DNA from: Convolutriloba macropyga
Lineage: Eukaryota
Assembly: GCF_964194025.1 (NCBI RefSeq)
Contig: NC_134471.1
Span: forward strand, 27,900,001-27,964,000
Direction: 5' to 3'
Length of the DNA: 64,000 bases
The notes beneath the pieces are model-generated. The model worked only from the letters and a program-made list of their open reading frames with translations. It searched no databases and had not been told where the DNA came from. A program made the position numbers and the translations under genes. Positions 17,044 to 41,156 of the stretch are shown here, piece after piece. Position 1 is the first letter of the stretch; every line of letters begins with the position of its first letter.

Positions 17044-17887
17044 TGTTACGCACTGATTTTTACGTGTTCCTCATGGTGTTTTCTGAGGTTAATATTGGAG
17101 GTAATTAACTTTTATAATCAGCATTTTACAAGGACTTATTTAGATGTTTCACAGTGCGATTCTTAGCAGATATATTTTGAATAAATTTAGCTAGTGATAG
17201 CCTTTTATTGAGCGGTTCGGATGTGCGATATATCCACTAGTTTGCCTTGTGTTCCAGAGTTTTAATCGTTTGCAATTATGCTCTTAGGAAGCCTGATCTA
17301 ACTTAGTAATTTTTAAAGATTTATCCAGTTCAATCTTTAATTATTTCAGCAAAAACTAATAACGAGAAGTTTTCTAGTTCTATCAAAGTTTTCCAAGATA
17401 TTAATCAACTGATTATCAGGCTGGTTCTCCGGTGTTCTGCTGATCGTAAGTTCCGCAGGACTGTGCCTCGAGTACTATTGGTCCTTCGCAAATATTTACT
17501 GATCTATAAGTTGGGCAATTTCCGGCTTTTGTACGTCTCTTGATGTTTGTTAAGTACATATACAAGTTCCGTATTAGCACCTACTTTATCAGAATAATTA
17601 CTTCACCAAGTACATAATCTCATGAAGTTATTTACTAATTATGCGAATTTATCTTCAAGAAACTCAAAAAAGTAAATATTGAGTCTTTTAGGCACTTGAT
17701 AAATTTATCAATAAACTGTCAATCTGCGGTTGTTTTTCATAAACATAAACAAATTAGGGGTTACAGGCCTAGATGGAAATACTAGCTGTATATGGCCTTG
17801 AAACTAAATGAATATTATAGCAATTATTTATGGATATTTTAAGGAATATCATCACGTAACTATGAGGGACGAAATAGGGGCGTGACA
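17044..17887 (-). repeat. 3' LTR (844 bp)
   Basis: TGTTACGC...GCGTGACA. By eye about 23 substitutions and 2 indels versus 39420-40272 (~97% identity). Confidence 0.95.
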
Positions 17888-18451: not shown

Positions 18452-20545
18452 TCAAGAGCTGAAAGTATACTTTCCTCTCGGGGTTGAGCTTGGTTTTCTA
18501 GTTCATCGTCTTTGTTGAATCGGCCCATGGTGTTGAGTGACATGGTAGAAGTTGCAGGCATGGAATTTCGTCGTTGTCGTTTTAGGGTTCCAAGTTCTTC
18601 TGGAGAGATGACTGTTGGCGGTTGCTTGAGGTGTTTGGCTAGATTTGTAACGACATCTGCTTTCAGATGTTTTGGTACTGAAACTACTGGATTAAGCGGT
18701 ACATTGTTCCGTTTCCGTTAAGCTTCATGAAATTTGGCACCATTTGTCGTACAAAGGCTACTTTATGGTATAAATACATGAAGAGGATATGTAAGGCTAA
18801 GTTTCCAATAAAGACAATGATTGTCAGCGAGAGAGAAAGCTTGATTGGCACGTAAGATTCAAGTTTGTCAATTAGTGCTGGCTTGAATGATTTCATTTCA
18901 GTGGTAATGGGCTTTGCTATGTCGTCTAATGATTCTGTTGATAACTTTCGATTGGAATAAATGAATTCTGTTTTGACTTTTTTCAGTAAATCAAGGCTGG
19001 CATCAGTGCTTGTTTCGTATTTTGGTAGCTCGTTTATGTTTGGAACTAAGTCAATTAATTGTTCTAGTGGATCAGGCAATTTAACATTGATTCTCTTTGC
19101 TGGAAGGTACTGACAACTTTGTAAATCAGCTCTGATATTAATGTGATCACTGAACATTGTGTGTCCACATTTTAATGTCATTAAACAGATGTTACAACCT
19201 TTATGGGGAATGTTGGTCTGTCGGCCATTCTCGTCCGTACCAATCTCACTAAGAGTAAAATCACTTGAAGCTGATGTAAGTAGCCATATTTCGTATCCAA
19301 GGTTCTGTGCTCGTTCGTGGTTGGGTAACACAACCTTCTCTGTGTCACATACTTTCAATGCTGTAATGGCATGATGAAACTTGAGGGTTGCTAGGTACGA
19401 GGAGAATCCAAGGTGAGTTTCCACTGTCTCATCACAGATTCGGTATCGTGGCGATCCTAGACAGTTATCATACTGAGCTCTCGTCAGTACTGTAGTTTCC
19501 ATCTGTCCTTCTGAGATTGGCTGTCCTTCTGAGTTCTCTCCCTCTATCACCCATCGTAAAGCGTCTACAGAGTCCTTCTGGGGCATAGGGATTACAATTG
19601 CACGATAAATTTCAAACACTGTCTGGCTAGAGGCTATGGGAATGGCTAGTGTCAGTAAAAGACCGTCTTCTACTGTTGAAATCTCTTGTACGAGTTTCGC
19701 ATCGTAATACGAAAGTATGTCAGTCATGGGAATTGCCAAAGTTAGACGATCTGGTGCGTTCTTTTGGCTATCATGGACTGCGTCAAGGATCTTTATCAAC
19801 GATTTTCGGGGTACTAAAGAGATTGGAAGGCGTTTGTCAAGTAAAGTAGGAATTGCATTTATAACATTAATTCGGAAAGAATGTAAGGCTGCTCAATAAC
19901 TTCTAATATCTGCATAAAGTGTAAGAAGTAAGGATGCTGCTGTGTCAAATTTAAAGTTCAGTTGTTGTTGTGTTGCTTGAATTTCCATGCAAGTTGCTAT
20001 TGCGTTCAGATTATGGTCTACAATTGCGAATTGTTCCTCAACTAGTTTCCAGTTTCTGTGCTGGTTTTCTTGCATTTCTTTTTGAACTTTATAAACCTTT
20101 GGAAGTTCGTCAGCAACTAGAAAGAATTTCTCATCGGTTTGTGCGCCGATTTCCATGACATAGTCGTTAAGGCTATTAAAACTGTTAGCTAGTCTATCGA
20201 TATTTTCAGCATTTTGAGACGTTCGTTGGCATGAGCCGAAAATTCCTGTGGTTCCACCGCATCCTCCGCTGCTCATTGCTATTCCTGGACCGAAGAGTCC
20301 AATTCCAGCGACTGCGGCTGCCCTAGCAAGCGGGGCGGCTCTTTTCTGTCTGTTTTGGGGGTCCTCTTCGACTCTGGTGAGGAGTTTTTCGGTCTCATTG
20401 CGTAGTTTAAAGACTTCAAGTTCGGCTTCGATACGTGGTACTGTAAGTCATGTTGCAAAATTCTGACTGTGTTATCCATTTCTTTGAGAGTTCAAGAAGT
20501 AGAGTCTCTACTTGTTGTCGTATCGTGAAACTGTAACGAGGAATG
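18452..20545 (-). pseudogene. env: env: class I fusion glycoprotein (F-like/errantivirus-like), with stops and frameshifts, N-terminus deleted
   Basis: Furin site RQKR at 20351-20340 is followed by the fusion-peptide-like AAPLARAAAVAGIGLFGPG, a heptad-like helix, a Cys-rich ectodomain and the TM segment LSLTIIVFIGNLALHILFMYLY. The cytoplasmic tail continues after a frameshift to TGA at 18452. No signal peptide is visible upstream of PRYSFT (~20543). Confidence 0.88.
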
Positions 20546-20715
20546 TTTATGTGGTGTTTATTTGTTTCAGGTGTACTCTGCTTTTATATCATGTGTGTTT
20601 GTGTGTGTGTTTATTGATATTACTACTAAATATGGTTTTTGAACATGTTGAAGAGTAGTTCTTCGATTGAATGGTGGGAGTGTGATTATGGGGATAGTGG
20701 TTGGGGGGTCTAATT

Positions 20716-21114
20716 ATGCAGTCTTTATGCAGTGTTTTTTCGCGTTTTTCAGATTATTCTGATATCAATATGTGCTTTAATATTACTGTCGGCCGGAATA
20801 ATATCACTCTGGGATGCTGCAACAACGGGACCAGGTATGTGTCAAGGAACTGGGTTCACTGGTCACGTTTAGTTCACCCAGAGTGCAATATTACTAATAG
20901 TACAGTAATAGTTAATAGTATAGAAGATGGAGGAGATGGTTGGGACGGGGACTCAATATTGTTATTATTATTCATATTATTATTCATATTATTCGGGATT
21001 GTTGGGATGTGGAGAAGAATGAGGGGAAGATGTGTGGGAAGAAGGAGGGGGAGGGAAGAGATTGAAGATCAGGAAGATGAGGGAGGAGTTGAAATGGAGG
21101 AGACGGCAGTATAA
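20716..21114 (+). CDS. Antisense accessory ORF of the LTR element: small single-pass membrane glycoprotein (copy 1)
   Basis: Five N-x-S/T sequons and four Cys in ~60 aa, then the hydrophobic ILLLLFILLFILFGIVGMW, an Arg cluster, an acidic tail and C-terminal ETAV. The start codon is uncertain. Confidence 0.6.
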   Translation: MQSLCSVFSRFSDYSDINMCFNITVGRNNITLGCCNNGTRYVSRNWVHWSRLVHPECNITNSTVIVNSIEDGGDGWDGDSILLLLFILLFILFGIVGMWRRMRGRCVGRRRGREEIEDQEDEGGVEMEETAV

Positions 21115-24100
21115 CTATTTATTTATTTTTATTTATATAACTTATTAACTGACTTGTAGTTGTAGTATGGATTAGTTCTCCTTAATATACTGACTACTAT
21201 ACTTGGTGCTATTAATATTTAATAAGGTGCTACTAATATCATAGTAATTAGTATATATCAAACTTGTTTTGTGGGGAAGATTGAAGACGTAAGTAGGGGA
21301 TAAAAGACAATTAGTGAAACTTTGAGAATAAGTAAATGTCAATGATAGTAGTGACGATGATAGTAGTGTCAATGATAGTAGTGCTTTTCTGCGTTGTCTG
21401 GTGCGTGTGTTAACAGATAGTGCCTAACTTCTCAAGGTGAGAAGGGTGAGCCAATGGAAATTAACTAGTTTCAGTTCAATTGTTTTGATTATCATGTAAT
21501 GTACTTTCAGTTATGGGCAAGTTTTTCGGAGATATCTTCGGATTGCAACAATTATGTTTGGTTTTTACTGGTGGAACTATTAACTGTGAAGCATGTGAGC
21601 ATGTATTAATGTTTTTGTGGCAGTGTGTAGCTATATAATGACATATTTGTGAGAGTGCAAGAATGGTGCTATAGTGACTTTTTTCATTTTTGAGCATCAA
21701 CTTAACTTCACTTGTGAAATACTGGTTATAAACTGGTTCTAATGGTTCTAGGTACTTGTCCTGGTTGTTAGCAGCACTTGGTAGACATCGGTGGGGAACA
21801 ACTATGCTATAAATTCAGGTTTTAGGGAACTTTTTTGGGCAACTTTTTATTCATGTTTGAGAAAACGAAAAATGCGAAAATTTGGGGGCCCCAGCGTCAC
21901 TCAATTTTTAAATTGCTCCAATCGGGCTCAAAATTCGCAGATCGCATCAGTGGCTCAGAAAACGCTGCAGCGCAAAAATTTGGCGCAATTTGAGCATTTT
22001 TCGCAAAGTTATGACTATTTTCGTAATCTGAACCTGGCTATTTTTGAATTATGAAATTTCGGGCTGAGTAAGTCGTCACTGTTCATACATTATAGGTATT
22101 GAATGGTTAAAATGGTACTGTCTATGCTTGGTACTAATGAATATTACTGAATTATAGGTTTTGAAGCTATTTATCGGGTCAGAACATTGATTTTTGAGTC
22201 CAAAATGCTAATTTTCAGGCGTGATTTTTCCACTATTCAAGGTTCTGCAAGACATGTGTCTGTCTGGTGATGCTCTAGTGACCTAAATCGGGTGCTAACT
22301 GTTAGTACTGATATCTGTGGCTATCAGGGGTAGCTTTTTGGTAGCTCTGGAAGTGATTAACTTGTGTTTTGTTCCAGTTTTTTTGTAGAATTTGATAGAT
22401 TTTTACTTGAGGTGGGTCATGTTTGTTGCATAAGTTGACATAGGTTGGAGATGATTGATTTTTGACGGTAACTGAGGGTCATACTAGTGAGTAATAATTT
22501 GGTGGCAGCTATTGGTGCAGTTTGATGCATGATTTGAGGTCATTGTGTTGAGTTTTTCATATTAGAATTTTGGACTAAATTTGGTCAAAGATGTGCAGAT
22601 TTCGATTTGTTCACTCTTTTCAACATTTTTGCATTTCTGTGGGATTGTATCAATTTATTAGGCTTGGAAAACTACTAGAGAGGTTGAGTAATGGATATGG
22701 GCTCATATGTCGTTTATTTTGTACTATTTTTCTGGTCTAATTCTGGTTCTGTTTTGACGAATTTGAGAAGAGTCTGGTAGGCTTCAGTATTTTGCTATTA
22801 TTTCACTATTTTACAAAATTTTACACTATTTTTAATATGAGCGTGTAGAGCTTGAGCATACGGATGTTTTAAGCTAATAATATCGGCTTTTAGATCAATA
22901 TTTTGGATTTTATTAACATGTACGTAAATTTTCAAAAAGTCTCCAAAATTGAGGACCCCAGCGTCAACCAATTTTGAAAATGCTTTGATTAAGCTCATAA
23001 TTGGTGAATCGCTTTATCGGCTCAAAAAACCCTGCAGCGCAAAAATTGAGGCGGTTTAAACTATTTTTTCACGAGTTATAACGTTTTTGCTGCAGTGAAC
23101 CTGGGTTTTTTGAAAAAGCTCAGATAGGGGATAGGTTATTGGCTATGAGGCTATGAAGAACTTGTTCAAAATGATTGATATTGCTATGGTTGTACTGCTC
23201 ATGAGTAGGGCTAAATTAACAATAATATTGGGCATATTTGAGTATTAAGATGCATTTTTGGTCACTTTTTTTGGAAATCACACTCAATTTTTTAATTTTC
23301 GTTACTTTGGCAGTCTTTTCTCAACTTGTATTGGCACTAGGGGGCTGGGAGTGCATATTCTAAGAGATATAGGTGTGGGTGTGCTTAATTGCTGTCAGAA
23401 GTTAATAGTTTTGACTTTAGTGGGAAATAACTATTTTTTCTGACAAAGTTGTGGCAATTTCAGAGCTTATTCGGGTTTAAGTCTTCATGGTTGATACTGG
23501 GATAAGCTGGCACTGGTTTTTATGGTACTACAAGGCTAGTGGGGGGTTGCACTAGGGTTGTAGGGGGTATAGGTGAATTTAATCGGGTCAGGTGGGGAAT
23601 ACAATGATAAAATTTTTTAAGCGGTGGATTGAAGCAGAAGCGCAATTTTTGTTTTTTTTTTCGCCATTTTTCAACATATACTTGGCAATATTGGGTTTTT
23701 ATGGCTGTTTGAGGTTTTTCCATGCGGGTGGCAGCTGGGAGTAGCTGCTGGAGGCATTTGAAACAGTTTTTGACATATTTTTGGGGTATAATTTACACTA
23801 CTTTTTAATCAATTTTAACACACTTTGGTAGGGTTCGGCATTTTTGTCATAACTCAACTTTTATTGATTTTTGACGGGATTTTTGGGTACTGGGACGTCA
23901 AGCGTGAGCAGTAGGATGGTCTAGGGCTCTAAAATAGGTCAATTGGGGGTTTTTTGTAGGAGTTATAATTGAATTCGTGCGGATTCGAAAAGTGCCAAAA
24001 ATCGGGGGCTCCAGCGTCACTCGATTTTTTAAGTTCTTCAAATCGCTTCAAAATTTGCATATCGGTTCCTCGGCTTGAAAAATGCTGCAGCGCAAAAGTT

Positions 24101-24236
24101 TGGAATGATCGGGGCATTTTTCACAATTTTATGACTGTTTTTCTGAGTGTTTAAACATGTTGAAGTGTAGTTCTTCGATTGAATGGTGGGTGTGTGATGA
24201 TGGGGATAGTGGTTGGGGGGGGGGGGGGGTCTAATT

Positions 24237-24671
24237 ATGCATTCTTTACATGCTTTTTCGCGTTTTTCAGATTATTCTGCTATCAATATGTGCTTTAACA
24301 TTACTGTCGGCCCGAATAATATCACTCTGGGATGCTGCAACAACGGGACCAGGTATGTGTCAAGGAACTGGGTTCACTGGTCAAGTTTAGTTCACCCAGA
24401 GTGCAATAATACTAATAGTACAGTAATAGTTAATAGTATAGAAGATGGAGGAGATGGTTGGGACGGGGACTCAATATTATTATTATTATTCATATTATTA
24501 TTCATATTATTCGTGGAGAGATTGTTGGGATGTGGAGAGATTATTCGTGGAGAGATTGTTGGGATTTGGAGAAGAAGGAGGGGAAGATGTGTGAGAAGAA
24601 GGAGGGGGAGGGAAGAGATTGAAGATCAGGAAGATGAGGGAGGAGTTGAAATGGAGGAGACGGCAGTATAA
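24237..24671 (+). CDS. Antisense membrane glycoprotein ORF (copy 2, with an in-frame repeat insertion at the TM end)
   Basis: Duplicate of 20716-21114. The frame is kept despite indels. Confidence 0.5.
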   Translation: MHSLHAFSRFSDYSAINMCFNITVGPNNITLGCCNNGTRYVSRNWVHWSSLVHPECNNTNSTVIVNSIEDGGDGWDGDSILLLLFILLFILFVERLLGCGEIIRGEIVGIWRRRRGRCVRRRRGREEIEDQEDEGGVEMEETAV

Positions 24672-27600
24672 CTATTTATTTATTTTTATTTATATAACTT
24701 ATTAACTGACTTGTAGTTGTAGTATGGATTAGTTCTCCTTAATATACTGACTACTATACTTGGTGCTATTAATATTTAATAAGGTGCTACTAATATCATA
24801 GTAATTAGTATATATCAAACTTGTTTTGTGGGGAAGATTGAGGACGTAAGTAGGGGATAAAAGACAATTAGTGAGACTTTGAGAATAAGTAAATGTCAAT
24901 GATTGTAGTGACGATGATAGTAGTGTCAATGATAGTAGTGCTTTTCTGCGTTGTCTGGTGCGTGTGTTAACAGATAGTGCCTAACTTTTCAAGGTGAGAA
25001 GGGTGCGCCAATGGAAATTAACTAGTTTCAGTTCAATTGTTTTGATTATCATGTAATGTACTCTCAGTTATGGGCAAGTTTTTCAGAGATATCTTCGGAT
25101 TGCAACAACTATGTTTGGTTTTTACTGGTGGAACTAGTAACTGTGAAGCATGTGAGCATGTGGTAGTTTTTTGTTGCATTGTGTAGCTTTATAATGACAT
25201 ATTTGTGAGAGTGCAAGAATGCTGATATAGTGACTTTTTTTCATTTTTGAGCATTAACTTAACTTTACTTGCGAAATACTGGTTATAAACTGTTTCCAAT
25301 GGTTCTAGGTACTTGTCCTGCTTGTTAGCAGCGCTTGTGTGTAATTTGAACTGGTTTGGAAGAGTATTTGGTACTAATTTCCACATGTAATTTTTTCGTA
25401 ATTTAGGTCATTTTTCCACATCAGGACTGGTGTTGCATATGTGAATTTTTCAAATTTTATTGAACTTTGGGCAAATTGTTTGGTTTGGCCCACTTGGTAG
25501 ACATCGGTGGGGAACAACTATGCTATAAATTCAGGTTTTAGGGAACTTTTTTGGGCAACTTTCTATTCATGTTTGAGAAAACGAAAAATGCAAAAATTTG
25601 GGGGCCCCAGCGTCACTCAATTTTTAAATTGCTTCAATCGGGCTCAAAACTGGCAGATCGCATCAGTGGCTCAGAAAACGCTGCAGCGCAAAAATTTGGC
25701 GCAATTTGAGCATTTTTCGCAAAGTTATGACTATTTTTGTAATCTGAACCTGGCTATTTTTGAATTATGAAATTTCGGGCTGAGTAAGTCGTCACTGTTC
25801 ATACATTATCGGTATTGAATGGTTAAAATGGTACTGTCTATGCTTGGTACTAATAAATATTACTGAATTATAGGTTTTGAAGCTATTTATCGGGTCAGAA
25901 CATTGATTTTTTAGTCCAAAATGCAAATTTTCAGGCGTGATTTTTCCACTATTCAAGGTTCTGCAAGACATGTCTGTCTGGTGATGCTCTGGTGACCTAA
26001 ATTGGGTGCTACTGTTAGTACTGATATCTGTGGCTATCAGGGGTAGCATTTTGGTTGCTTTGGAAGTGATTAACATGTGTTTTGTTCCAGTTTTTTTGTA
26101 GAATTTGCTAGATTTTTACTTGAGGGGCGTCATGTTTGTTGCATAAGTTGACATAGGTTGGAGATGATTGATTTTTGACGGTAACTGAGGGTCATACTAG
26201 TGAGTAATATTTTGGTGGCAGCTATTGGTGCAGTTTGATGCATGATTTGAGGTCATTGTGTTGAGTTTTTCATATTAGAATTTTGGACTAAATTTGGTCA
26301 AAGATGTGCAGATTTCGATTTGTTCACTTTTTTCAACATTTATGCATTTCTTTGAGATTTTATCAATTTATTAGGCTTGGAAAACTACTAGAGAGACTGA
26401 GTAATGGATATGGGCTAATAAGTCGGTTACGAATTTGAGAAGAGTCTGGTAGGCTTCAGTATTTCGCTATTATTTCAACATTTTACTTAACAATTTTCAA
26501 TCTTTTTAATATGAGCGTGTAGAGCTTGAGCATACGGATGTTTTAAGCTAATAATTTTGGGTTTTAGGTCAATATTTTGGATTTTATGAACATGTACGTA
26601 AATTTTCAAAAAGTCTCCAAAATTGAGGACCCCAGCGTCAACCAATTTTGAAAATGCTTTGATTGAGCTCATAATTGGTGAATCGCTTTATCGGCTCAAA
26701 AAACCCTGCAGCGCAAAAATTGGGGCGGTTTAAACTATTTTTTCACGAGTTATAACGTTTTTGCTGCAGTGAACCTGGGTTTTTTGAAAAAGCTCAGATA
26801 GGGGATAGGTTATTGGCTATGAGGCTATGAAGAACTTGTTCAAAATGATTGATATTGCTATGGTTGTACTGCTCATGAGTAGGGCTAAATTAACAATAAT
26901 ATTGGGCATATTTGAGTATTAAGATGCTTTTTTGGTCACTTTTTTTTGGAAATCACACTCAATTTTTTAATTTTCGTTACTTTGGCAGTCTTTTCTCCAC
27001 TTGTATTGGCACTAGGGGGCTGGGAGTGCATATTCTAAGAGATATAGGTGTGGGTGTGCTTAATTGCTGTCAGAAGTTAATAGTTTTGACTTTAGTGGGA
27101 AATAACTATTTTTTCTGACAAAGTTGTGGCAATTTCAGAGCTTATTCGGGTTTAGGTCTTCATGGTTGATACTGGGATAAGCTGGCACTGGTTTTTATGG
27201 TACTACAAGGCTAGTGGGGGGTTGCACTAGGGTTGTAGGGGGTATAGGTGAATTTAATCGGGTCAGGTGGGGAATAAAATGATAAAAATTTTTAAGACGT
27301 TGATTGAAGCAGAAGCGCAATTTTTGTTTTTTCGTCATTTTTCGACATATACTTGGCAATTTTGGGTTTTTATGGTTATTTGAGGTTGTACCATGCGGGT
27401 GGCAGCTGGGAGTAGCTGCTGGAAGCATTTGGAACAGATTTTGACATATTTTTGGGGTATAATTTACACTACATTTTAATCAATTTTAACACACTTTGGT
27501 AGGGTTCGGCATTTTTGTCATAACTCAACTTCTATTGATTTTTGACGGGATTTTTGGGTACTGGGACGTCAAGCGTGAGCAGTAGGATCGTTTAGGGCTA

Positions 27601-28112
27601 TAAAGTAGGTCAATTGGGGTTTTTTGTAGGAGTTATAATTGAATTCGTGCGGATTCGAAAAGTGCCCAAAATCGGGGGCTCCAGCGTCACTCGATTTTTT
27701 AAGTTTTTCAAATCGCTTCAAAATTTGCATGTCGGTTCCTCGGCTTGAAAAATGCTGCAGCGCAAAAGTTTGGAATGATCGGGGCATTTTTCACAATTTC
27801 ATGACTGTTTTTCTGAGGTGAACCTAGGATTTTTGGAAAGGTCAATTTTAGGCTAAGATTTTGGTACTTAGAACGGGTCAAAAGGGGTCAGTTATAGCTG
27901 GAATTGCTTCTACTGGATGAGGGCTGTTCAGGACAGTAGGATAATCCAGGTTCGGACCAGTAGTTCTGGAGATATATCAAAATAACTAGGATTTAAGGTC
28001 GAAATTTTTCGAATTTTGGGCGATTTTTGGGCTTTAGGGCTAAGTTGCTCAGGCTTGTTGGGCTTTTGGGGCAATTAGATGGTACTGCTGGACTGTACTG
28101 GGTCTGTACATG

Positions 28113-28535
28113 CTAATGGATGTAGATGGTTATGGGTAGAGGGTCAAAGACTTGACGTATAAGTTCAAAAATGATGTTAAAATCTAATTTATCATAGCCA
28201 CTGGCGAGTTTTGGAAGACTTAAGTGTGAAATTCCTGCATCTATTACTATTTCTCTTAGTTCATAAAGACTTGCTAATACAGATTCGTATGTGGGTTTGT
28301 GGTAGTATCTGAATTTGGTAACTAATTTGAAGATATAACGCTCAAAATAGGGGTCAAAATATATTAAAACAGCCAATATTCGGTGGGTATCTAAGTCTGA
28401 TTGCACTTGGGGCTGCTGGGTACCAGCTTTTGACTTGTCTGGCTAATGCCTTTGCCATTGCAAGGTCTGCTGATATACAGAGTGCAAAAGAGTGTCGAGA
28501 GTGTAAGATATCTGTTGGTGAACTAAGATAAGTTG
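28113..28535 (-). pseudogene. TARG1/OARD1-like macrodomain, duplicated copy (2-bp deletion near 28370)
   Basis: SFALCISADLAMAKALA...RYIFKLVTK..YHKPTYESV..SL..L.....GISHLSLPKLASGYDKLDF matches the TARG1 pattern HCISED.RMGAGIA / YYLITK / KPTY / LSMPRIGCGLD.L.W. Confidence 0.88.
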
Positions 28536-31075
28536 CATTGATTTCTTGTCTAAAGTGATTTAAGTTTTGGTTTGATGAGCCTGGTGAAGAGTTTTTTGTT
28601 TGAGATCTGGTTACTGGTTTGTTTGCTGAACTGCTGTGCTTTTTCCCTGAATATTTGGCTATACTAGCTCTAACTTGATCTAATTTTGTCTCTCTACTTG
28701 GTGTATTTGTCTGTTTTGATGTTTGTGCTGATGCTTTTGTTGCTTCACGTTTTTCTTCTTGCTCCAATCTAGTTCGTGCATTTTTCGGTCTAGGACTGCC
28801 TGATCTTCTAACTTGGTTGCTTAGATAAGAGTTTGTTCTATCTTCTTCATGCAACATTATTTGTCTATGTAATTTAAATCCGCGTACATTTTTCCGCTGT
28901 TGGTAGTCTAGTGGTTTGAATGCACTTTTCTCTGGTTTTCGTTTAGGATTATAAGGTCGGGCTCTAATCTTCCTGTCAGTTAATGCGAATTGTTCTTCAT
29001 GTTATTCTGGAGGCGATTCAATGTCGAATGGTACTATTGATGGCTGAGGTTGTTGAGCTGGTAGGAACATTTCATCATCTGATGAGGATGATACTAGAGG
29101 AACACGATTTTCTGGTTCTTGCTGTCGAATTTCATCAGCAATTAGTGGATCAACCGGTATTCTTGCTATTTGTTGTGCATCTAGGTTCAGGTCAGCTAGA
29201 TTTTCATCTGAACTGCTATTCTCATCAAATAAGTTTGGAATTGCTTCATCTGAGCTTGAAGAATCAAATACTGGAAGATGGACTGGTGCTGTTCGTGGTC
29301 TAACTGCTGGTGCTACTACCCTTGGTGGGGCCAGTGGCACTGCTGGAGATGCTGCTGCTGGTCAAAGATGTGCAGATTTCGATTTTTTCACTTTTTTCAA
29401 CATTTATGCATTTCTGTGAGATGTGTATCAATTTATTAGGCTTGGAAAACTACTAGAGAGACTGAGTAATGGATATGGGCTCATAAGTCGGTTATTTTGT
29501 ACTATTTTCTGGTCTAATTCTGGTTCTATTTTGACGAATTTGACAAGAGTCTGGTAGGCTTCAGTATTTTGCTATTATTTCAACATTTTACTAAACAATT
29601 TTCAATATTTTTGATATGAGCGTGTAGCTTGAGCATACGGATGTTTTAAGCTAATTATATCGGGTTTTAGATCAATATTTTGGATTTTATGAACATATAC
29701 GTAAATTTTCAAACAGTCCCCAAAATTGAGGGCCCCAGGGTCAGTCAATTTTGAAAATGCTTTGATTGAGCTCAAAATTGGTGAATCGCTTTATCGGCTC
29801 AAAAACCCTGCAGCGCAAAAATTTGGGCGGTTTTAACTATTAGGCTATGAAGAACTTGTTCAAAATGATTGATATTGCTATGGTTGAACTGCTCATGAGT
29901 AGGGCTAACTGAATTAACAATAATATTGGGCATATTTGAGTATTAAGATGCATTTTTGGTCACTTTTTTTGGAAATCACACTCAATTTTTTGTAATTTTC
30001 GTTACTTTGGCAGTCTTTTCTCAACTTGTATTGGCACTAGGGGGCTGGGAGTGCATATTCCAAGAGATATAGGTGTGGGTGTGCTTAATTGCTGTCAGAA
30101 GTTAATAGTTTTGACTTTAGTGGGAAATAACTATTTTTTCTGACAAAATTGTGGCAATTTCAGAGCTTATTTGGGTTTAAGTCTTCATGGTTGATACTGA
30201 ATTGAGCTGGGACTGGTTTTTATGGTACTACAAGGCTAGTGGGGGGTTGCACTAGGGTTGTAGGGGGTATAGGTGGCTTTAATCGGGTCAGGTGGGGAAT
30301 AAAATGACAAAAATTTTTAAGCGGTGGATTGAAGAAGCACATTTTTTGTTTTTTTTTCGTTATTTTTCAACATATACTTGGCGATATTGGGTTTTTATGG
30401 TTGTTTGAGGTTGTGCCATGCGGGTGGCAGCTGGGAGTAGCTGCTGGAGGCATTTGGAACAGTTTTTGACATATTTTTGGGGTATAATTTACACTACATT
30501 TTAATCAATTTTAACACACTTCGGTAGGGTTCGGCATTTTTGTCATAACTCAACTTTTATTAATTTTTGACGGGATTTTTGGGTACTGCGACGTCAAGCG
30601 TGAGCAGTAGGATGGTCTGGGGCTATAAAATAGGTCAATTAGGGGTTTTTTGTAGGAGTTATAATTGAATTCGTGCGGATTCGAAAAGTGCCAAAAATCG
30701 GGGGCTCCAGCGTCACTCGATTTTTTAAGTTCTTCTTAAGTTTGGAATGATCGGGGCATTTTTCACAATTTTATGACTGTTTTTCTGAGGTGAACCTAGG
30801 ATTTTTGGAAAGGTCAATTTTATCCTAAGTTTTTGGTACTTAGAACGGGTCAAAAGGGGTCAATTATAGCTGGAATTGTTTTTACTGGATGAGGGCTGTT
30901 CAGAACAGTAGGTTAATCCACGTTCGGACAAGTAGTTCTGGAGATATATCAAAATAACTAGGATTTAAGGTCGAAATTTTTCGAATTTTGGGCAATTTTT
31001 GGGCTTTAGGGCTAAGTTGCTCAGGCTTTTGGGGCAATTAGATGGTACTGCTGGACTGTACTGGGTCTGTACATG

Positions 31076-31500
31076 CTAATGGATGTAAATGGTTATGGGT
31101 AGAGGGTCAAAGACTTGTCGTATAAGCTCAAAAATGATGTTAAAATCTAATTTGTCATAGCCACTGGCGAGTTTTGGAAGACTTAAGTGTGAAATTCCTG
31201 CATCTATTACTATTTCTCTCAGTTCATAAAGACTTGCTAATACAGATTCGTTTGTGGGTTTGTGGTAGTATCTGAAATTGGTAACTAAACTGAAGATATA
31301 ACGCTCAAAATAGGGGTCAAAATATATTAAAACTGAGCCAATATTCGGTGGCTATCTAAGTCTGATTGCACTTGGGGCTGCTGGGTACCAGCTTTTGACT
31401 TGTCTGGCTAATCCCTTTGCCATTGCAAAGTCTGCTGATATACAGAGTGCAAAAGAGTGCGGAGAGTGTAAGATATCTGTTGGTGAACTAAGATATGTTG
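31076..31500 (-). pseudogene. TARG1/OARD1-like macrodomain at the Pol C-terminus (premature TAG at 31352)
   Basis: Same motifs as the other copy. It follows integrase and a Pro/Ala/Ser-rich linker, and the frame continues past the TAG as PPNIGSVLIYFD. Confidence 0.88.
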
Positions 31501-34500
31501 CATTGATTTCTTGACTAAAGTGATTTAAGTTTTGGTTTGATGAGCCTGGTGAAGAGTTTTTTGTTTGAGATCTGGTTACTGGTTTGTTTGCTGAACTGCT
31601 GTGCTTTTTCCCTGAATATTTTGCTATACTAGCTCTAACTTGATCTAATTTTGTCTCTCTACTTGGTGTTTTTGACTGTTTTGATGCTTGTGCTGATGCT
31701 TTTATTGCTTCACGTTTTTCTTCTTGCTCCAATCTAGTTCGTGCATTTTTCGGTCTAGGACTGCCTGATCTTCTAACTTGGTTGGTTAGATAAGGGTTTC
31801 TTCTATCTTCTTCTTGCAACATTATTTGTCTATCTAATTTAAATCCGCGTACATTTTTCCGCTGTTGGTAGTCTAGTGGTTTGAATGCACTTTTCTCTGG
31901 TTTTTGTTTAGGATTATAAGGTCGGGCTCTTTTCTTCCTGTCAGTTAATGCAAATTGTTCTTCATGTTATTCTGGAGGCGATTCAATGTCGAATGGTACT
32001 ATTGATGGCTGAGGTTGTTGAGCTGGTAGGAACATTTCAGCATCTGATGAGGATGATACTAGATGAACACGATTTTCTGGTTCTTGCTGTCGAATTTCAT
32101 CAGCAATTAGTGGATCAACCGGTATTCTTGCTAATTGTTAAGCATCTAGGTTCAGGTCAGCTAGATGTTCTTCTGAACTGCTATTCTCATCAAATAAGTT
32201 TGGAATTGCTTCATCTGAGCTTGAAGAATCAAATACTGGAAGATGGACTGGTGCTGTTCGTGGTCTAACTGCTGGTGCTGCTACCCTTGGTGGGGCCAGT
32301 GGTACTGCTGGAGGTGCTGCTGCTGCAGGTCCTGTTGCTTGTCCACCTAGGGGGACGTTTATGGTCACTCTGACTGGGTCTGGTTTCACTTTCTTAGACT
32401 GTTGTAACTCGTTTTCTTGTTCATATATCACATCTGGGATATGTTTATCAAATAGATCAGGTTCCATGTGTTGCCGTCTTGATAGATCAGGTTGAAAATT
32501 TACAGGATTAATTACTTCAAGGCCTTCAGGGGTTTCACTTGGCTTAACTGGTTTCAATCTGATACGGTGAACACATTGTGTGTAATTCGTGTTTACTTTT
32601 CGAATGATGTAATTAGAGTCAGTAAGGACTTTTTCCACTTTATACAGCGGTAGCACTTTCTGAACTTGAGAAGCTATTACTGTTGATTGTTCTAATAGCT
32701 TGGGATTCACAAGTAAACAGAATGATTTCTCCGGAATGGGTTTTGCTGATGCTTTTTGGTCATAATACTTTTCATACACTTCAAGTATGCAGTCGTTAGT
32801 TTTTCTTTGTTTTCTCCGATCTTTTGCATCATGGCATCTTGCAGTTCATTTACAAAATCAGAATTTACTGTTACTGCATTCATTACTTCTCTGGAGAACC
32901 TAATGTCAAGGGATTTTATTGGTTCTCTGCCATGGAATAAAGTTGAAGGGCAACAATTTGTCGCTGAATGATAAGAAGTATTATGAATGAATGTTGCTAA
33001 TGCAACATATTTATGCCAATCTTTCCATTGTTCCTCAGTATTGAGCTTAAATATTCGTTTCAGTGGTCCGTGAGATCGTTCTATTGCTCCAATGGTCTGA
33101 GGGTTCTTTAGTGAGGCATGTTTTAACTTTACTTCTAGTAAACTTGCTCATTCTGACATTAATTCCGAAGTAAAATTTGTTCCTAAGTCACTAAGTATCG
33201 TTTGAGGAATGTAGCTATGTTGAAAGAACACCACTACTAATTCTCGGGCTACTGTGTCAGCATATCCATTTGTTAGTGGGACTGCAAATAGATGCTTTGT
33301 GAAAACATCTATTCGACTCAAAACATACTTAAATTGCGAGGACTTTAGTGGGCCTACTAAGTCAATTTGGAGCATATCTCCTGGATATGATTGTAGTGAA
33401 CTAACTGGTTGCAATTTTGTGTAATGTGGCTTTTCGGAACTCTGTTTAATTGGAGACAAGTCAGGCAGTTTTTAATGAAACTAATGAAGTGTTCAGTGAA
33501 ACCGGGGTAATAGAATCGCTTTCTAAATTCTTGAATTGTTGCTTTTGGGCCTAAATGACATGTTTGTGAATTATGGAGCCTATATATAGTCTCTTTCCAC
33601 AAATGCTTAGGTACACAGAATTGTTTATGAAGTACTTTTCCAGTATCATCATAAAAATTCCGGTATAAGACATTCCCTTCAAGAATTAATCTATTTAAAT
33701 GTTTGTGATACTTTTTTAAGTTGGTTGAAGCATACTTTAAGTCTGGTTGTTGATTGTTTTGTTGAATCCAGCTTATTACTGTACTAATGTCTGCATCCTT
33801 TTGCTGCTCTTCTGCTAAGTTAAGGCTAATTAAGTTGTCTGTAAGGTCTGGGAACTCATCTAATGGGTTTGGGTACTCAGTTGAATTTATTTCTTGCTTT
33901 CTTTTAAGTTTTAATAGACTTTGTATTTCTGTGACTGGTAAATTATTCTGTTTCTTTTTGTAATCGTCATAGACTCCGAGTTTTTTAAGGACGTCAAGTT
34001 CAGCACTATTAATTTCGTCATCGAAATTTTCAATATCAAATAACACATTTAGTTCAATGTCAGGATTCTGGGCTTCTGTGTCTATTTCTATTTCTCTAAC
34101 TGGAATTCTATCTGTTAACTTTAAAGACATTGTCGCTGTTTTATCGTTCTCCATTCTAGAGAGAAAATCTGCTGCGTAGTTAGCGCGTCCAGGAATGTGA
34201 GCAATTACTATGTTAAAGGCAAGTATTCTGTCTAAACAATTCCAAAGAGATGGCGGTATTACTTTTGACTGAAAGAATTGCGTAAGGCTTTTGTTGTCGT
34301 ATAATTACTTGTTTACTTGATCCCCAAATGTAGTGCAAAAAGTAATCCAGTGCATAGTACAAGGCTAGGAACTCTTTGTATTAAATTGAAAACTTTAATT
34401 GCGTTGCATTAAACAAATGCGATCCAAACGATACGGGAGCGTATGTTTTCTTTTCTTTCTTTCCAGTTTCGTTTACATAGTCTTCCACCATTAGTACAAG

Positions 34501-36860
34501 ACCTGCGCCGTGGTAACTAGCGTCACAAAGAATTACATACTGCAAGCCTGGTTTTGGCAATCGGAATGTTACATTTGTTGCTTCCATTAGATCCTTCTTT
34601 ATTACTTCTAATGCCTTTACATGTTCTTCTGTGGTTTCTATTACTGCATCCTTCTTCAGGAGCTTGTAAAATGACATTAGTTTTTCACCTAGTTTAGGGA
34701 TGTAATTTCTGAAGAATTGCGTGAAACCGATTAATCGCTTTACTTGCTTTGTTGTTTTCGGCATTTTGAATTTATCGAGAAATTTAGTTATTTTTGACTT
34801 TTCATGTGATATTCCTTCTGCACTGATGTTATTTCCAAGAAATTTCATTGTATCTGTTGCTATTTCACACTTTTCAGGTGACAATTTTAGTCCGGATTGA
34901 CGTATACAGATAAATATTTCTCGCAAAGAGGGTACCAATTGTTCAAAATTTGTTACTGCATTTCCACTATCATCTATAAACTGGGTACAATTTCCTGAGG
35001 CTAGGCATGGGTCCAAATAATGTCTAATGAAAGAGCTAAATCCAGTTACTGACTTATTCAGTCCTTGGGCAACGCATTTATAAGCATAATTTCTCGAAGC
35101 AAATTTAAATGCTAGCAGTTGCACTGATACATCGGCTGCCATTTGCACACAGTGATATACTTGAGAACAGTCAAGTTTTGTAAACAACTTTTTCCCGGCA
35201 AAGTAATTTATTGCATCATTCATGTTCGAAATTGGTAAAATTTGTATTCACATAATCGTTTTTCAGCAAATGATTTACTTTTCTCAAGTCTCTAGTCTAA
35301 GTCTTCCTGAATTTTTCCGTTGAGCGAAAAGCAGACTACTATATCTTGATTGAGACAAAGTTGTTATCAGTCCATAGTAATGCATTAATGCTAATTCTAC
35401 TTGCAACTCTATTCTCAGATGGACAGGCGTTGGAGGTCCTTCCTCATAAATTGGTATGCTTCTTTCTGGAGTTACCTTTATTTTTAAATCTGTATTATAT
35501 CCGACGTCAAATCTGTTTTGCAAAAATGTCACTGAATTCGACTAATAATTCGCCTACTACAGCTTTTTGCTCATAGTTAAGGGCCGATTTCTCCCACGGG
35601 AACTTGCTCAAAAAAGTGATTTTATCCTGATTATTACCCTTTGGATCTAATTTCTCCATTTCTTGCAGTTTGAGCAGTTGCTCAAATATTTCTCTCTGCA
35701 AGGGCGACAAATTTGTCGGATCTGGGCACGTTTCAGGCGTGGGGAACCACAATTTTTCATATTCTGGAGCCGGCTTTGCTGGTTGGGCCTTTCTTTTTGG
35801 CGTATCTGTGACTTGAATTAGTTGATTTATTTCTGTTAAATAATTTTCACTCATTTTTGCTACATTTATTAATTGAGGATCTACTTCTAACAACGTTTCA
35901 GCTTGATCTGATGTTAAGAATGAGAATTTGGCTATTTCTTTGCCTTTATTTATGGTAATTGGATGGTCAGTAATGTTGAGGACATAGATATAAAGAATAT
36001 TATTTTCAGCAACTTTACTTAAAGAGGATTTTAATATTACTTCGCTATCTTTTTCAAAGATTTCGTTTGGAATTATTACCCCACAAAGATCAGTGAATGA
36101 TTCTAGTTTGTCCTGAAGCTTGCATTCTAGTACTGCTTGTTGATTTGGTTGTAATACTTGCTCTTTCTGTGTATAAACTCCGAATTTTTTACGCTTTACT
36201 ACCCTTCTGGGTTGCTTTTCTGACTTTAATTCATTGATTTGCAGAGTTTGGTCAGGGAATTTAATGTAGCTTTGTCCTGCGCAGATGCTAACTTTATGTT
36301 TAACAAAGAATGGGTTGCCTAATATTACAGGAATTGTGACAATTAAAACAAGGAAATCTTCTGTGAATGTTTGTGTGCGCAATTTAAATGTAACTTTAAT
36401 TACTTTGTCAATTTTAACTATATTTCCGTTTGCCATTATCTAGATCCGGCTTTTCTATTTCTGTTATTGAATTGATAATTGTGTTAATAAGTTCCTTGTA
36501 AAACTCGCGGCTTATCACGTTTGCAAATGCTCCTGTATCAATTAGTGCGCGTCTTTCAAATTCTCCATTAAATTTAATTTTAACATAGGATAATGTTCGG
36601 CCTAAAAGCGGGACAATGCTATATAATTGTTGAATATGTGCTACTGGTTTTAGTGTGGGTTGAGGTACTTGTGTTGGGAGTTGCACAGATTTATTCACTT
36701 TATTTTTATTACTATTTCTTTTGCGTTTTCTACGCTTTTTGTTACTTTATAAACTGGTTCTATTACTTTATCTAAACTAGGACTAGACGTGCTTTCGTTA
36801 TAATAATTAACTGAGTTTTTATAATTTTCATTTTGTTTTTTAAAGTTGGGTGGCTTTATT
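31076..36860 (-). pseudogene. pol: pol polyprotein (PR, dUTPase-like insert, RT, RNase H, integrase, linker, macrodomain), multiple frameshifts
   Basis: PR RALIDTGA; RT KLDCSQ.YH, AQGL, QFIDD; RH ILCDASYHGAG and HIPG..N..AD.LSR; IN H..H...CLTC, QIDLVGP, LSDLGTNF. Confidence 0.95.
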
Positions 36861-36870
36861 AGTTTTTTTG
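36859..36870 (-). promoter_or_regulatory. Probable -1 ribosomal frameshift site at the gag-pol junction
   Basis: Minus-strand C AAAAAAAC TAA: an A-AAA-AAC slippery heptamer immediately before a stop, at the end of the Asn/Gln-rich gag tail. Confidence 0.55.
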
Positions 36871-38102
36871 TTGATGAAATGGGTAATTCATACTTCTCAT
36901 AGTTCTATTTTGAGGAATACTTGCACGATTAAACTGATTTGCTTGTTGACTAGTATATCGGTTTTGTGCTGGCGCTGGGCTATCATAAACTATTCCCTGT
37001 CGAAGAAGATTTGCAGGGGTATTTCCAGTAGGGAACCGATAAATTGGTCTATTAACATAAGCTGGATGAACAAATGGGGGGCTATTTGAAGGTTCAGTCC
37101 AATGATTCCGAGTTTGTGGCTGTTCATTATGATAAAATGGTCTAGGGGCATTAAATTGTGGTCTAAACTCTCGGTAATTATTAGCACGGGGGGCATACTG
37201 TTGCTGGGGCCGATAGTTTTGCTGAAATTGACGATAATTGGGCTGATATTGAGGGTAATTTGGTTGATAATTTTGATAATGCGGGCGAAAATTTTGTCTA
37301 TAACTTTGTCTGTAGACTTGTTGTGGGTAATTTGGTGTGAAAATGTTTACTGGGCCTTGTTCTGGTGGCTCATTTTTACTGCTATGCTCTGTTCAAGTTT
37401 TTGCTCAAGTTCTTTTTGATTATTTGAGATAACAGTTATTGCTTTTAACATTTTATCTGTATTTGATTCTGTTATTTCGTTAAATCCATCGTCAAAGTAC
37501 TCTTCTCTGTTACACATCTCCCTAATTGCAATTTGTTGGCTAGCTAAGGTGCATAATTGGTCAATTGTATCAGTATCTGGCCTTTCTAACAACTTAGGCT
37601 TAAGCCAGTTCGGCATAGACTTAATGAAGAAGCGCTTTATTTGTTCATTTTTCCTGTTTTCTGACATTTCAAGGGCAGATTCCCTTGCTGCTGTCTCTTT
37701 CAAATCTACGAGCCTCAGCATCACGTCCTCCTGCTGCCGCTACTACTATTTCGGGTGCTGGATATGCTTTATTTGCTTCTGTTCTCAACTTTACTAAGAC
37801 ATTTTTTACTGTATCAGTTTTTGGATCTCCAACTTTATTATTCTGATCTCTCTCAAGTCGTCTTGTGTGAATCTATTTCTTAGAGCTGTTATACTATCCG
37901 CAAAAACTAGTCTGGTAGCCTCTGGTAGGGTTAGAAAGTATCTTAATGCATCTCCTTTTAAATGTAATTGCAGAAAATTCGCTTGTTGGGCGGCTGCGAT
38001 TGCTGCAACTCCAATTGCACCTGTTATTAACTGTTCAAATTCGTTGAAATTGTCCGTTTCTGATCCAGAGAAGGGTGTGATGTTGATTTGCGCGTGTGAC
38101 AT
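36859..38102 (-). pseudogene. gag: gag (frameshifted)
   Basis: MSHAQINITPFSGSE...FLQLHLKGDALRYF...ALRNRF is a Gypsy capsid-like start, followed by FIKSMPNWLKPKLL and an N/Q-rich tail. It lies directly upstream of the protease. Confidence 0.85.
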
Positions 38103-39155: not shown

Positions 39156-39361
39156 TGCTCGGAAAGGAAGTGCTGGAAGCTGATTGAATGTTCTTAAGGT
39201 AATGAAATGGAAGAAGATAAAGAAAGTGTCAAAAGAAGAAAATGTCGAATTTATCAAATGCTCGGAAAGGAAGTGCTGGAAGCTGATTGAATGTTCTTAA
39301 GGTAATGAAATGGAAGAAGATAAAGAAAGTGTCAAAAGAAGAAAATGTCGAATTTATCAAA
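39156..39361. repeat. 103-bp perfect tandem duplication in the 5' leader
   Basis: TGCTCGGAAAGGAAG at 39156 and 39259. Confidence 0.92.
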
Positions 39362-39401: not shown

Positions 39402-39419
39402 TAGTAACTCCTGTCACCA
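39402..39419 (-). promoter_or_regulatory. Primer-binding site, tRNA-Leu-like
   Basis: TGGTGACAGGAGT directly after the 5' LTR; 12/13 match to the tRNA-Leu PBS TGGTGTCAGGAGT. Confidence 0.75.
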
Positions 39420-40272
39420 TGTCACGCACTGATTTTTACGTGTTCCTCATGGTGTTTTCTGAGGTTTATATTGGAGGAAATTAACTTGTATAATCAGCAT
39501 TTTACAAGGACATTTAGATGTTTCACAGTGCGATTTTTAGCAGATATATTTTGAATAAATTTAGCTAGTGATAGCCTTTTATTGAGTGGTTCGGATGTGC
39601 GATATATCCACTAGTTTGCCCTGTGTTCCAGAGTTTTCATCTTTTTCAATTATGCTCTTAGGAAGCCTGCTCTAACTTAGTAATTTATAATGATTTATCC
39701 AGTTCAATCTTTAATTATTTCAGCAAAAATAAGTTAACATTTAATAACGAGAAGTTTTCTAGTTCTATCAAAGTTTTCCAAGATATTAATCAACTGAATG
39801 TCAGGCTGGTTCTCCGGTGTTCTGCTGATCGGAAGTTCCGCAGGACTGTGCCTCGAGTTGTATTGGTCCTTCGCAAATATTTCCTGATCTATAAGTTGGG
39901 CAATTTCCGGCTTTTGTACGTCTCTTGATGTTTGTTAAGTACATATACAAGTTCCGTATTAGCACCTACTTTATCAGAATAATTACTTCACCAAGTACAG
40001 AATCTCATGAAGTTATTTACTAATTATGCGAATTTATCTTCAAGAAACTCAAAAAAGTAAATATTGAGTCTTTTAGGCACTTGATAAATTTATCAATAAA
40101 CTGTCAATCTGCGGTTGTTTTTCATAAACATAAACAAATTAGGGGTTACAGGCCTAGATGGAAATTCTAGCTATATATGGCCTGGAAACTAAATGAATAT
40201 TATAGCAATTATTTATGGATATTTTAAGGAATATCATCACGTAACTATGAGGGACGAAATAGGGGCGTGACA
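39420..40272 (-). repeat. 5' LTR (853 bp)
   Basis: TGTCACGC...GCGTGACA with perfect 8-bp terminal inverted repeats; adjacent to the PBS. Confidence 0.95.
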
Positions 40273-40425
40273 GTTGGTTTTTAGCCACACATGGTTTAGC
40301 TCAACCAAAGTTGACTTTTCTCACTATTAAATTGATGAAGTTGAGCAATTGTAGTAGTCCTGTGGTTTTCCTATGCGACTTTTCGCTCGACCGATTTTCC
40401 GTCTGACACATTTGACTGTTTTCCT

Positions 40426-41156
40426 CTTGTACTCTAGGAATGCGATTCACCAAAACTTTTCAGGACTCAATTTGATGATGTGAAGGACTGTTCTCAATCT
40501 TAACAGTTTGACCCCATCGATCAACCCACTCTCCCCCCCACCCCCCGCATTACCTAACCCCCTCTGGTCCAGCATTTGCAACCCTACCCCCATCGTTGCC
40601 CCCCACAGACACACACACTCCGGTCACCCCCTAAAGAACCCTGATGAAGAAATATAACCTCCTCACTTCAGGCGAATTGCTCTCTAATGAGGCGGTTATA
40701 TTTCTTTAATTTAATTCAAAGAGATATGGTTAATTTAATTCAAAGAGATATGGTCAACTAAGTGTGTGTCACTCTAATGGAAGGTTATTTACTTGTACTC
40801 TAGGAATGCGATTCACCAAAACTTTTCAGGACTCAATTTGATGATGTGAAGGACTGTTCTCAATCTTAACAGTTTGACCCCATCGATCAACCCACTCTCC
40901 CCCCCACCCCCCGCATTACCTAACCCCCTCTGGTCCAGCATTTGCAACCCTACCCCCATCGTTGCCCCCCACAGACACACACACTCCGGTCACCCCCTAA
41001 AGAACCCTGATGAAGAAATATAACCTCCTCACTTCAGGCGAATTGCTCTCTAATGAGGCGGTTATATTTCTTTAATTTAATTCAAAGAGATATGGTTAAT
41101 TTAATTCAAAGAGATATGGTCAACTAAGTGTGTGTCACTCTAATGGAAGGTTATTT
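40426..41156. repeat. 366-bp tandem duplication with a nested ~24-bp repeat
   Basis: CTTGTACTCTAGGAATGCG at 40426 and 40792; the copies appear identical. Confidence 0.92.

Follow-up and report, generated by a model that had tools for sequence, protein, structure and literature searches.

The 64,000-nucleotide stretch of Convolutriloba macropyga DNA analysed here (contig NC_134471.1, positions 27,900,001 to 27,964,000; hereafter the window) contained one long terminal repeat (LTR) element, a dead Ty3/gypsy element on the minus strand with an F-type env, whose pol ended in a TARG1-type macrodomain behind the integrase (IN). Comparison with other proteins showed that a TARG1-type domain in Pol is a recurrent arrangement and no one-off. 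The value of the finding lies in this architecture, since the locus in the window is a dead copy. We see about an even chance that the domain acts as a particle-borne, position-independent eraser of host ADP-ribose marks and is no integration-targeting module.

The TARG1-like domain was found twice on the minus strand, as copy B at 31501-31079 (stop codon at 31078-31076) and as copy A at about 28536-28116 (stop codon at 28115-28113). The translation of copy B, with an X placed at its single internal stop, was designated P0001; P-numbers denote the protein sequences compared. In a PDB sequence search, P0001 matched human TARG1/C6orf130 over nearly its full length (E 1e-12 to 2e-12, about 29% identity), and matched DarG only at E 0.02-0.08. 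The single-sequence fold was poor (pLDDT 49), and an alignment-based model (pLDDT 94) was used instead. The eight best PDB matches of the modelled domain were all TARG1/C6orf130, followed by DarG and then by viral macrodomains, which is consistent with the TARG1-type macrodomain that the initial annotation had placed at the end of pol after a linker. A profile built from 79 of the 88 aligned macrodomains, with the 9 rows of the window family and its sister lineages excluded, scored 116.8 bits on copy B and 85.6 and 15.2 bits, in two frames, on copy A; 20 windows with shuffled bases reached 2.4 bits at most. The Macro profile search that had been proposed as a check succeeded in part: Pfam Macro detected the relatives P0091 and P0216 above its cut-off, and did not detect P0001 at E <= 0.01. 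Because Pfam Macro missed the window domain, the identification rests on the PDB sequence and fold matches.

On the alignment to 2L8R (counted by eye, offset +1), the Lys of an LVTK motif and the Asp of a GYD motif corresponded to Lys84 and Asp125, the catalytic pair of TARG1 (PMC6397177, PMC9967889). Both residues were present in copy A, while copy B had the Asp and a substituted Lys column, as had been noted initially.

Both window copies are dead remnants. From the IN C-terminal domain to the macrodomain end, copy B carried premature stops at 32140, 31969 and 31354, with a frameshift near 32770; copy A carried a stop at 29004, shared with copy B, and, within the macrodomain, a frameshift near 28370. 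Copy A sat in a tandem duplicate (26817-29360 resembling 29837-32325) with no integrase upstream, and the interval 28113-31500 included about 1.7 kb of non-coding spacer. The two copies first described are thus both present, but they belong to one element and neither is intact. Two separate elements were ruled out by the single LTR pair and the single target-site duplication (TSD).

Natural relatives carry the macrodomain fused in frame to Pol. The same-family set comprised 66 proteins (23 + 43), one of them encoded by the window. P0023 had a single open reading frame (ORF) from the integrase core to the macrodomain start, and P0008, P0012 and P0013 each had one ORF from the IN C-terminal domain through the macrodomain end. 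In the sister-family protein P0218 (1338 aa), reverse transcriptase (RT), RNase H, integrase, linker and macrodomain lay in one ORF; its RT was the sister of the window RT (99/99), and the window RT region matched it at 68%. The in-frame fusion that the initial annotation had wished to see confirmed in intact copies was found in these proteins. The Lys column held Lys in 45 of the 66 same-family proteins (48 covered the column), and the Asp column held Asp in 34 of the 66 (37 covered it). Identity between families was 71% in the integrase core (60-71% for integrase across the sister families), 57-60% in the IN C-terminal region and 35-42% in the macrodomain; the linker was partly alignable to P0209 and not alignable to P0218 or P0091. 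These alignments indicate that the macrodomain was retained while its tether was rewritten. In the sister families the domain persists at 35-42% identity where the linker to P0218 and P0091 can no longer be aligned, and this suggests that it was acquired long ago and is not a recent retrocopy.

A macrodomain tree (a quick tree of 121 rows and 149 columns, with near-duplicates and about two-thirds of the unlinked matches left out) placed the window family nearest to element-borne domains of sister lineages, with weak support (81) above the node of the family and P0220. Three groupings were put to approximately unbiased (AU) tests on a set of 44 rows, and none could be rejected: one of every after-IN domain (p 0.08), one of every Pol-linked domain (p 0.25), and one uniting the window family with the named insect TARG1 proteins (p 0.42). 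As judged from these trees, neither a single nor multiple capture, nor the donor, is fixed. The last grouping, like the broken state of both window copies, would fit a host TARG1 retrocopy, recently captured and now decaying as a neutral passenger, the outcome that had been named as refuting the first proposal. We consider this highly improbable: the domain was kept in frame with an intact dyad across the divergence given above, its nearest rows in the tree were element-borne at that weak support, and retention across families largely refutes a recent origin.

The wider set comprised 233 further matches (P0068-P0300), selected by similarity, in which Pol domains were mapped by local phmmer. 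LTR-type Pol domains were found in 54 of them, so that the window domain is not the singular case it had appeared to be. The macrodomain lay after integrase in 18, between RNase H and integrase in 18, after protease in 17 and before protease in 1; many of the 54 were near-copies and hence not independent events. Named carriers were Aromia moschata, Athalia rosae, Sipha flava, Aphis craccivora, Triplophysa rosa and Lampyris noctiluca errantivirus 1. In the Pol-linked domains of other families the catalytic Lys was present in 52/52 and the Asp in 49/52 (2 of the 54 were unscored). Retrovirus-like Pol proteins with a TARG1-type domain after integrase (P0250, and P0249 of Triplophysa rosa), a TARG1-type domain beside a non-LTR endonuclease (P0254, P0256), and an RNA-virus replicase with a TARG1-type rather than MacroD-type domain (P0193, pairing weakly (83) with the errantivirus domain P0283) show that the domain recurs in genetic parasites. 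Tandem TARG1-type domains were observed between RNase H and integrase in P0221 (three) and P0241 (two). The gypsy Pol of Aromia moschata (P0106, P0143) ended in integrase, macrodomain and a CCCH zinc finger, likely an RNA-binding module. As a guess, the 'pseudo' domains 2 and 3 that some insect errantiviruses carry in the bridge between RNase H and integrase (PMC13524379) may be macrodomains.

The position of the domain differed even between lineages that are sisters by RT. In an RT tree of 23 rows, whose long branches meet near the window clade and leave deep placement unsure, the after-IN carriers did not form a single group: their label needed three changes, and none of 200 bootstrap trees gave one; P0078 (after IN) was the sister of P0246 (after protease) at 99/99. 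These results bear on the proposal of the initial annotation that the domain, like a chromodomain, binds ADP-ribosylated chromatin and steers insertion. Its location C-terminal to integrase is that of the chromovirus chromodomain (PMC12440569), and the ALC1 reader domain is a relative of the TARG1 class (PMC7050489). The domain nevertheless occurs at three Pol positions that differ even between sisters, P0225 carries a chromodomain and then a macrodomain, both after integrase, and the catalytic Lys is invariant in the scored domains; in the window family about 336 aa separate the domain from the IN C-terminal domain. A steering reader is therefore very unlikely, and a delivered enzyme is favoured because of the variable position, the co-occurrence in P0225 and the conserved Lys. 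Pfam found no Chromo domain in the window ORFs or in P0008, P0012, P0013, P0023 and P0218, and no ADP-ribosyltransferase (ART) domain in the scanned window ORFs.

An enzyme might instead serve at the integration site, clearing ADP-ribose made by PARP1/2 at gapped DNA ends or on nearby proteins so that host repair completes the insertion. In the window clade the domain is indeed tethered to integrase, and TARG1 is recruited to sites of damage and undoes the ADP-ribosylation of DNA ends (PMC4695847, PMC7050489). A TARG1-type domain was also found on DNA ligase III-like proteins in 9 matches (P0224, P0226-P0228, P0234, P0235, P0237, P0240 and P0243; one from Tigriopus californicus), which formed a supported clade (98) in the macrodomain tree. 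However, 35 of the 54 Pol-linked domains followed protease or stood between RNase H and integrase, positions at which cleavage by the protease may separate them from integrase, and end-linked marks are already erased by several host enzymes. We regard this role as unlikely.

The eraser reading, which we prefer, would work as follows. Working members would make Pol in the order protease, RT, RNase H, integrase, linker and macrodomain, as supported by the RT-to-macrodomain ORF of P0218 and by overlapping ORFs in the window family. Ty3/gypsy Pol is packaged into particles. Because it is part of Pol, the macrodomain would enter the particle and would accompany the genomic RNA, the intermediates of reverse transcription and the integration complex. 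Its predicted fold and its conservation suggest an active TARG1-type ADP-ribosylhydrolase that uses the Lys/Asp dyad. Inside the particle it may remove host-added ADP-ribose from element RNA, single-stranded DNA or acidic protein residues; base- or end-linked marks on RNA or single-stranded DNA would block reverse transcription or integration. It would thus be a counter-defence or clean-up enzyme wherever in Pol it is placed. Human TARG1 erases Glu/Asp-linked, end-linked and thymidine-linked ADP-ribose (PMC8501950), and erases uracil/guanine-linked ADP-ribose selectively and fastest (bioRxiv 10.64898/2026.03.31.715305). Base-linked marks on genomic RNA or single-stranded cDNA are expected to stall reverse transcription, a subject on which the available part of that preprint is silent. 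Viral MacroD-type domains counter antiviral PARPs (PMC7050489), and a counter-PARP reading of the present domain, the first option of the initial annotation, is plausible.

Several results weigh against the eraser reading, the unrejected AU groupings among them. Literature searches turned up no ADP-ribose-based restriction of Ty3/gypsy elements. The published TARG1 pattern TKx(30,35)Px[IL]GxGxD (PMC6397177) was present in 0/66 same-family proteins, because Ala replaces the first Gly of the GxG loop, and in 25/66 if that Gly may be Ala; the pocket of the window-family domain may thus be altered. The sister-family proteins P0218, P0091 and P0220 and 166/233 other matches carried the strict pattern, and by this measure the window family is a TARG1-like variant and not a strict member. 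Three basic RNA-docking residues, K50, R86 and R126, have been named for TARG1 (bioRxiv 10.64898/2026.03.31.715305). Among 47 family rows, the R86 column held Arg in 38 and the R126 column Lys or Arg in 28 (10 gaps), and the K50 column was Ser in 42 with a Lys adjacent. Two of the three columns are thus mostly basic in the family, which speaks for the eraser reading, but the patch is retained there only in part, and poorly in the other after-IN domains, where the R86 column held Lys or Arg in 5/18. Conservation of the dyad does not single out a role in retroelements, because it was equally high in the non-Pol matches (Lys 171/174) and the set was chosen by similarity. The ratio of nonsynonymous to synonymous substitution rates between copies A and B was 0.28 for the macrodomain, where 7 vs 7 changes were counted (Fisher p 0.019), and 1.29 for the linker. 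The value of 0.28 was set aside as a selection signal because the copies share a premature stop; their divergence (3.7%) is also close to that of the LTRs (2.9%).

A narrower form of the eraser reading can be offered tentatively, as a possibility with the balance against it. Hosts would attach ADP-ribose to the bases of retroelement RNA or single-stranded cDNA, and this would explain why TARG1-type domains were repeatedly taken up by Ty3/gypsy elements of animals, by retroviruses of fish and by some non-LTR elements. Only TARG1/DarG chemistry would remove the base marks, so that a eukaryotic DarT/DarG-like conflict would be played out at reverse transcription, with the element's own 'DarG' in the particle. 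A housekeeping function without any immune mark seems quite unlikely: the domain would deacetylate O-acetyl-ADP-ribose, or clean tRNA primers or RNA ends, and so affect sirtuin silencing or priming. TARG1 does hydrolyse O-acyl-ADP-ribose and phosphate-linked ADP-ribose (PMC6397177, PMC7050489), and ADP-ribosylation of KAP1 by SIRT6 silences L1 in mammals (PMC4695847). Such a function gives no clear reason why the domain should be covalently joined to Pol, of which each particle holds few copies, and nothing in the sequence points to it.

The features of the element are listed in Table 1. It reaches 23 kb because two internal stretches were duplicated in tandem; the units of these duplications differ by 3.1-3.7%, near the LTR divergence.

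Table 1. Features of the Ty3/gypsy element in the window (positions of the 64-kb stretch)
Feature	Position	Strand	Evidence
5' LTR, TG...CA	39420-40272	-	ends and TSD read from sequence
TSD GTTGG outside 5' LTR (5 bp)	40273-40277		
3' LTR	17044-17887	-	BLAST self-match
TSD GTTGG outside 3' LTR	17039-17043		
Primer-binding-site-like sequence, TGG start, directly inside 5' LTR	39404-39419	-	sequence
gag-like region, frameshifted	36860-38102	-	position and ORF pieces
Protease and protease-RT spacer, frameshifted	35500-36600	-	DTG motif near 36540, by eye
RT and part of RNase H	34300-35247	-	Pfam RVT_1 E 4e-16, RT_RNaseH_2 E 2e-6
Integrase: zinc-binding, core and C-terminal domains; frameshifts (one near 32770)	32549-33614	-	Pfam Integrase_H2C2, rve, Integrase_p58_C; tblastn frames
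Low-complexity linker, about 315 aa, two premature stops	31502-32430	-	in frame with IN C-terminal domain and macrodomain
TARG1-type macrodomain copy B, end of pol, one internal stop	31076-31501	-	PDB sequence and fold matches, profile
Copy A: duplicated linker and macrodomain (domain about 28536-28116)	28113-29360	-	self-BLAST, translation
pol-env spacer, two tandem units (20635-24147, 24147-27817), about 170-bp subrepeats	20635-28112	.	self-BLAST
Antisense ORF, 153 aa, in pol-env spacer	24210-24671 (second copy 20698-21114)	+	
F-type env	18684-20447	-	RQKR furin-like site, fusion-peptide-like stretch, C-terminal hydrophobic anchor

The element was assigned to Ty3/gypsy by its TG...CA LTRs, TSD, primer-binding-site-like sequence and Pol order (protease, RT, RNase H, integrase). 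The LTR pair matched at 95.7% (BLAST), with 24 substitutions in 842 aligned bases (2.9%). Pfam searches gave no match for the gag-like region, which is putatively named from its position, for the protease-region ORF (35510-36439) or for the antisense ORF (24210-24671). The linker was rich in Pro, Ser and Ala, with an acidic part followed by a basic part. The two pol-env spacer units differed by 3.1-3.6% substitutions. The product of the antisense ORF was Cys-rich, with N-x-S/T glycosylation motifs and one hydrophobic stretch, and the ORF is possibly an accessory gene. Subrepeats of about 170 bp, 67-85% alike and spaced at about 1-1.6 kb, recurred along the pol-env spacer of roughly 4 kb and along its duplicates (at about 21866, 22945, 23986, 25582, 26619, 27656, 29710 and 30690). 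An Rfam search of 16500-41000 gave no match, and a tRNA gene search of the window found none.

The env had one internal stop near 19890, and neither Pfam nor PDB sequence searches gave a match for it. Its Atlas language-model features scored 0.94-0.95 to clusters with Baculo_F in 12-37% of their members, below the tool's recognition threshold. The element fits best among the Ty3/gypsy elements that resemble F-type errantiviruses, with moderate support for relating its env to F glycoproteins. In P0002 and P0017, from different contigs, the macrodomain end was fused in frame to the env ectodomain with an identical junction, corresponding to window position 31085 joined to 20210; this is either a shared internal-deletion derivative without the whole pol-env spacer or a gene-calling join.

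Elsewhere in the window, a large tandem array occupied about 51166-64000, with units of about 1.15-1.3 kb (51166-56440) and then of about 815 bp (56440-64000), 78-94% alike and with a GC content of about 42-44%. A non-LTR-type RT fragment (weak RVT_1) lay at 7671-9864 on the plus strand with a 463-bp near-perfect tandem duplication, and further exact duplications were seen at 39156-39361 and 40426-41156. Two ORFs of 131 and 127 aa at 14204-15230 on the plus strand look like fragments of a host gene for a membrane or mitochondrial protein.

Some retrotransposon records carry annotations of macro-type domains. Among the literature matches listed, in searches that covered few subscription journals and not Repbase, no paper dealt with a TARG1-type domain in the Pol of Ty3/gypsy elements. 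Term searches gave no mention of such a domain in the available text of PMC13524379, PMC12440569, PMC5408684, bioRxiv 2021.11.30.470311 and PMC6397177 (its supplementary sequence lists lay outside the search). Counter-PARP macrodomains are established in RNA viruses, where they are MacroD-type (PMC7050489), and the present arrangement is real and recurrent, a variant of a known strategy that has apparently received little study. Counter-defence enzymes persist in parasites only where a defence exists. The records from beetle, sawfly, aphid and fish, with a putative TARG1-type eraser at three places in Pol, point to an action of ADP-ribosylation on animal retroelements and suggest a possible host defence that marks retrotransposons with ADP-ribose. 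The domain is small and soluble, and its substrate range is directly measurable; if base-linked marks were its best substrate, the recently described ADP-ribosylation of RNA and DNA bases would have a physiological target.

Among known systems, human TARG1 (OARD1/C6orf130, of the ALC1-like class; PDB 4J5S, 2L8R) is closest to the modelled domain, with the same minimal macrodomain fold (template modelling score 0.76-0.82 by query), the Lys84/Asp125 dyad and the Cys33, Ser35 and Thr83 columns. The window domain differs from it in sequence, at about 29% identity, in the fusion to the Pol end, in the Ala at the first Gly of the GxG loop and in the Ser of the K50 column. The bacterial DarG antitoxin (PDB 5M3E, 5M31, 5M3I) was the next-best match of the modelled fold (E 4e-10) and has an equivalent of the catalytic Lys (PMC8501950). 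Identity to DarG was 19-21%; the window domain has the TARG1 Asp, and it has no DarT partner or operon, its neighbours being integrase and env.

The macrodomains of (+)RNA viruses (alphavirus nsP3, coronavirus Mac1) are likewise encoded by a parasite inside a replication polyprotein, and the proposed common logic is reversal of PARP marks (PMC7050489). They are MacroD-type with another mechanism, shared 13-16% identity with the window domain, ranked below TARG1 and DarG by fold and were not found by sequence search with P0001; the carrier in the window, in contrast, is a reverse-transcribing element. Macro-domain ORFs have been reported in fish epsilon-like endogenous retroviruses (Basta et al. 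2009, as cited in PMC4977317), which also represent capture of a macrodomain by an LTR retroelement. These belong to the Retroviridae, are called additional ORFs without a macro class in the available text of PMC4977317, and lay apart from the window family in the macrodomain tree.

F-type errantiviruses are env-carrying Ty3/gypsy elements (PMC13524379), and the window element shares their LTR-gag-pol-env layout, furin-like site and F-like ectodomain; it adds the roughly 4-kb pol-env spacer with the antisense ORF. The main text of PMC13524379 contained no word starting with 'macro' or 'ADP-rib', and the matches among the supplement rows listed were species names. Chromoviruses also have an extra domain C-terminal to integrase. 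Theirs is a methyl-lysine reader, whereas the window domain has a predicted enzyme fold, is set off by a long linker, varies in position between carriers and can coexist with a chromodomain.

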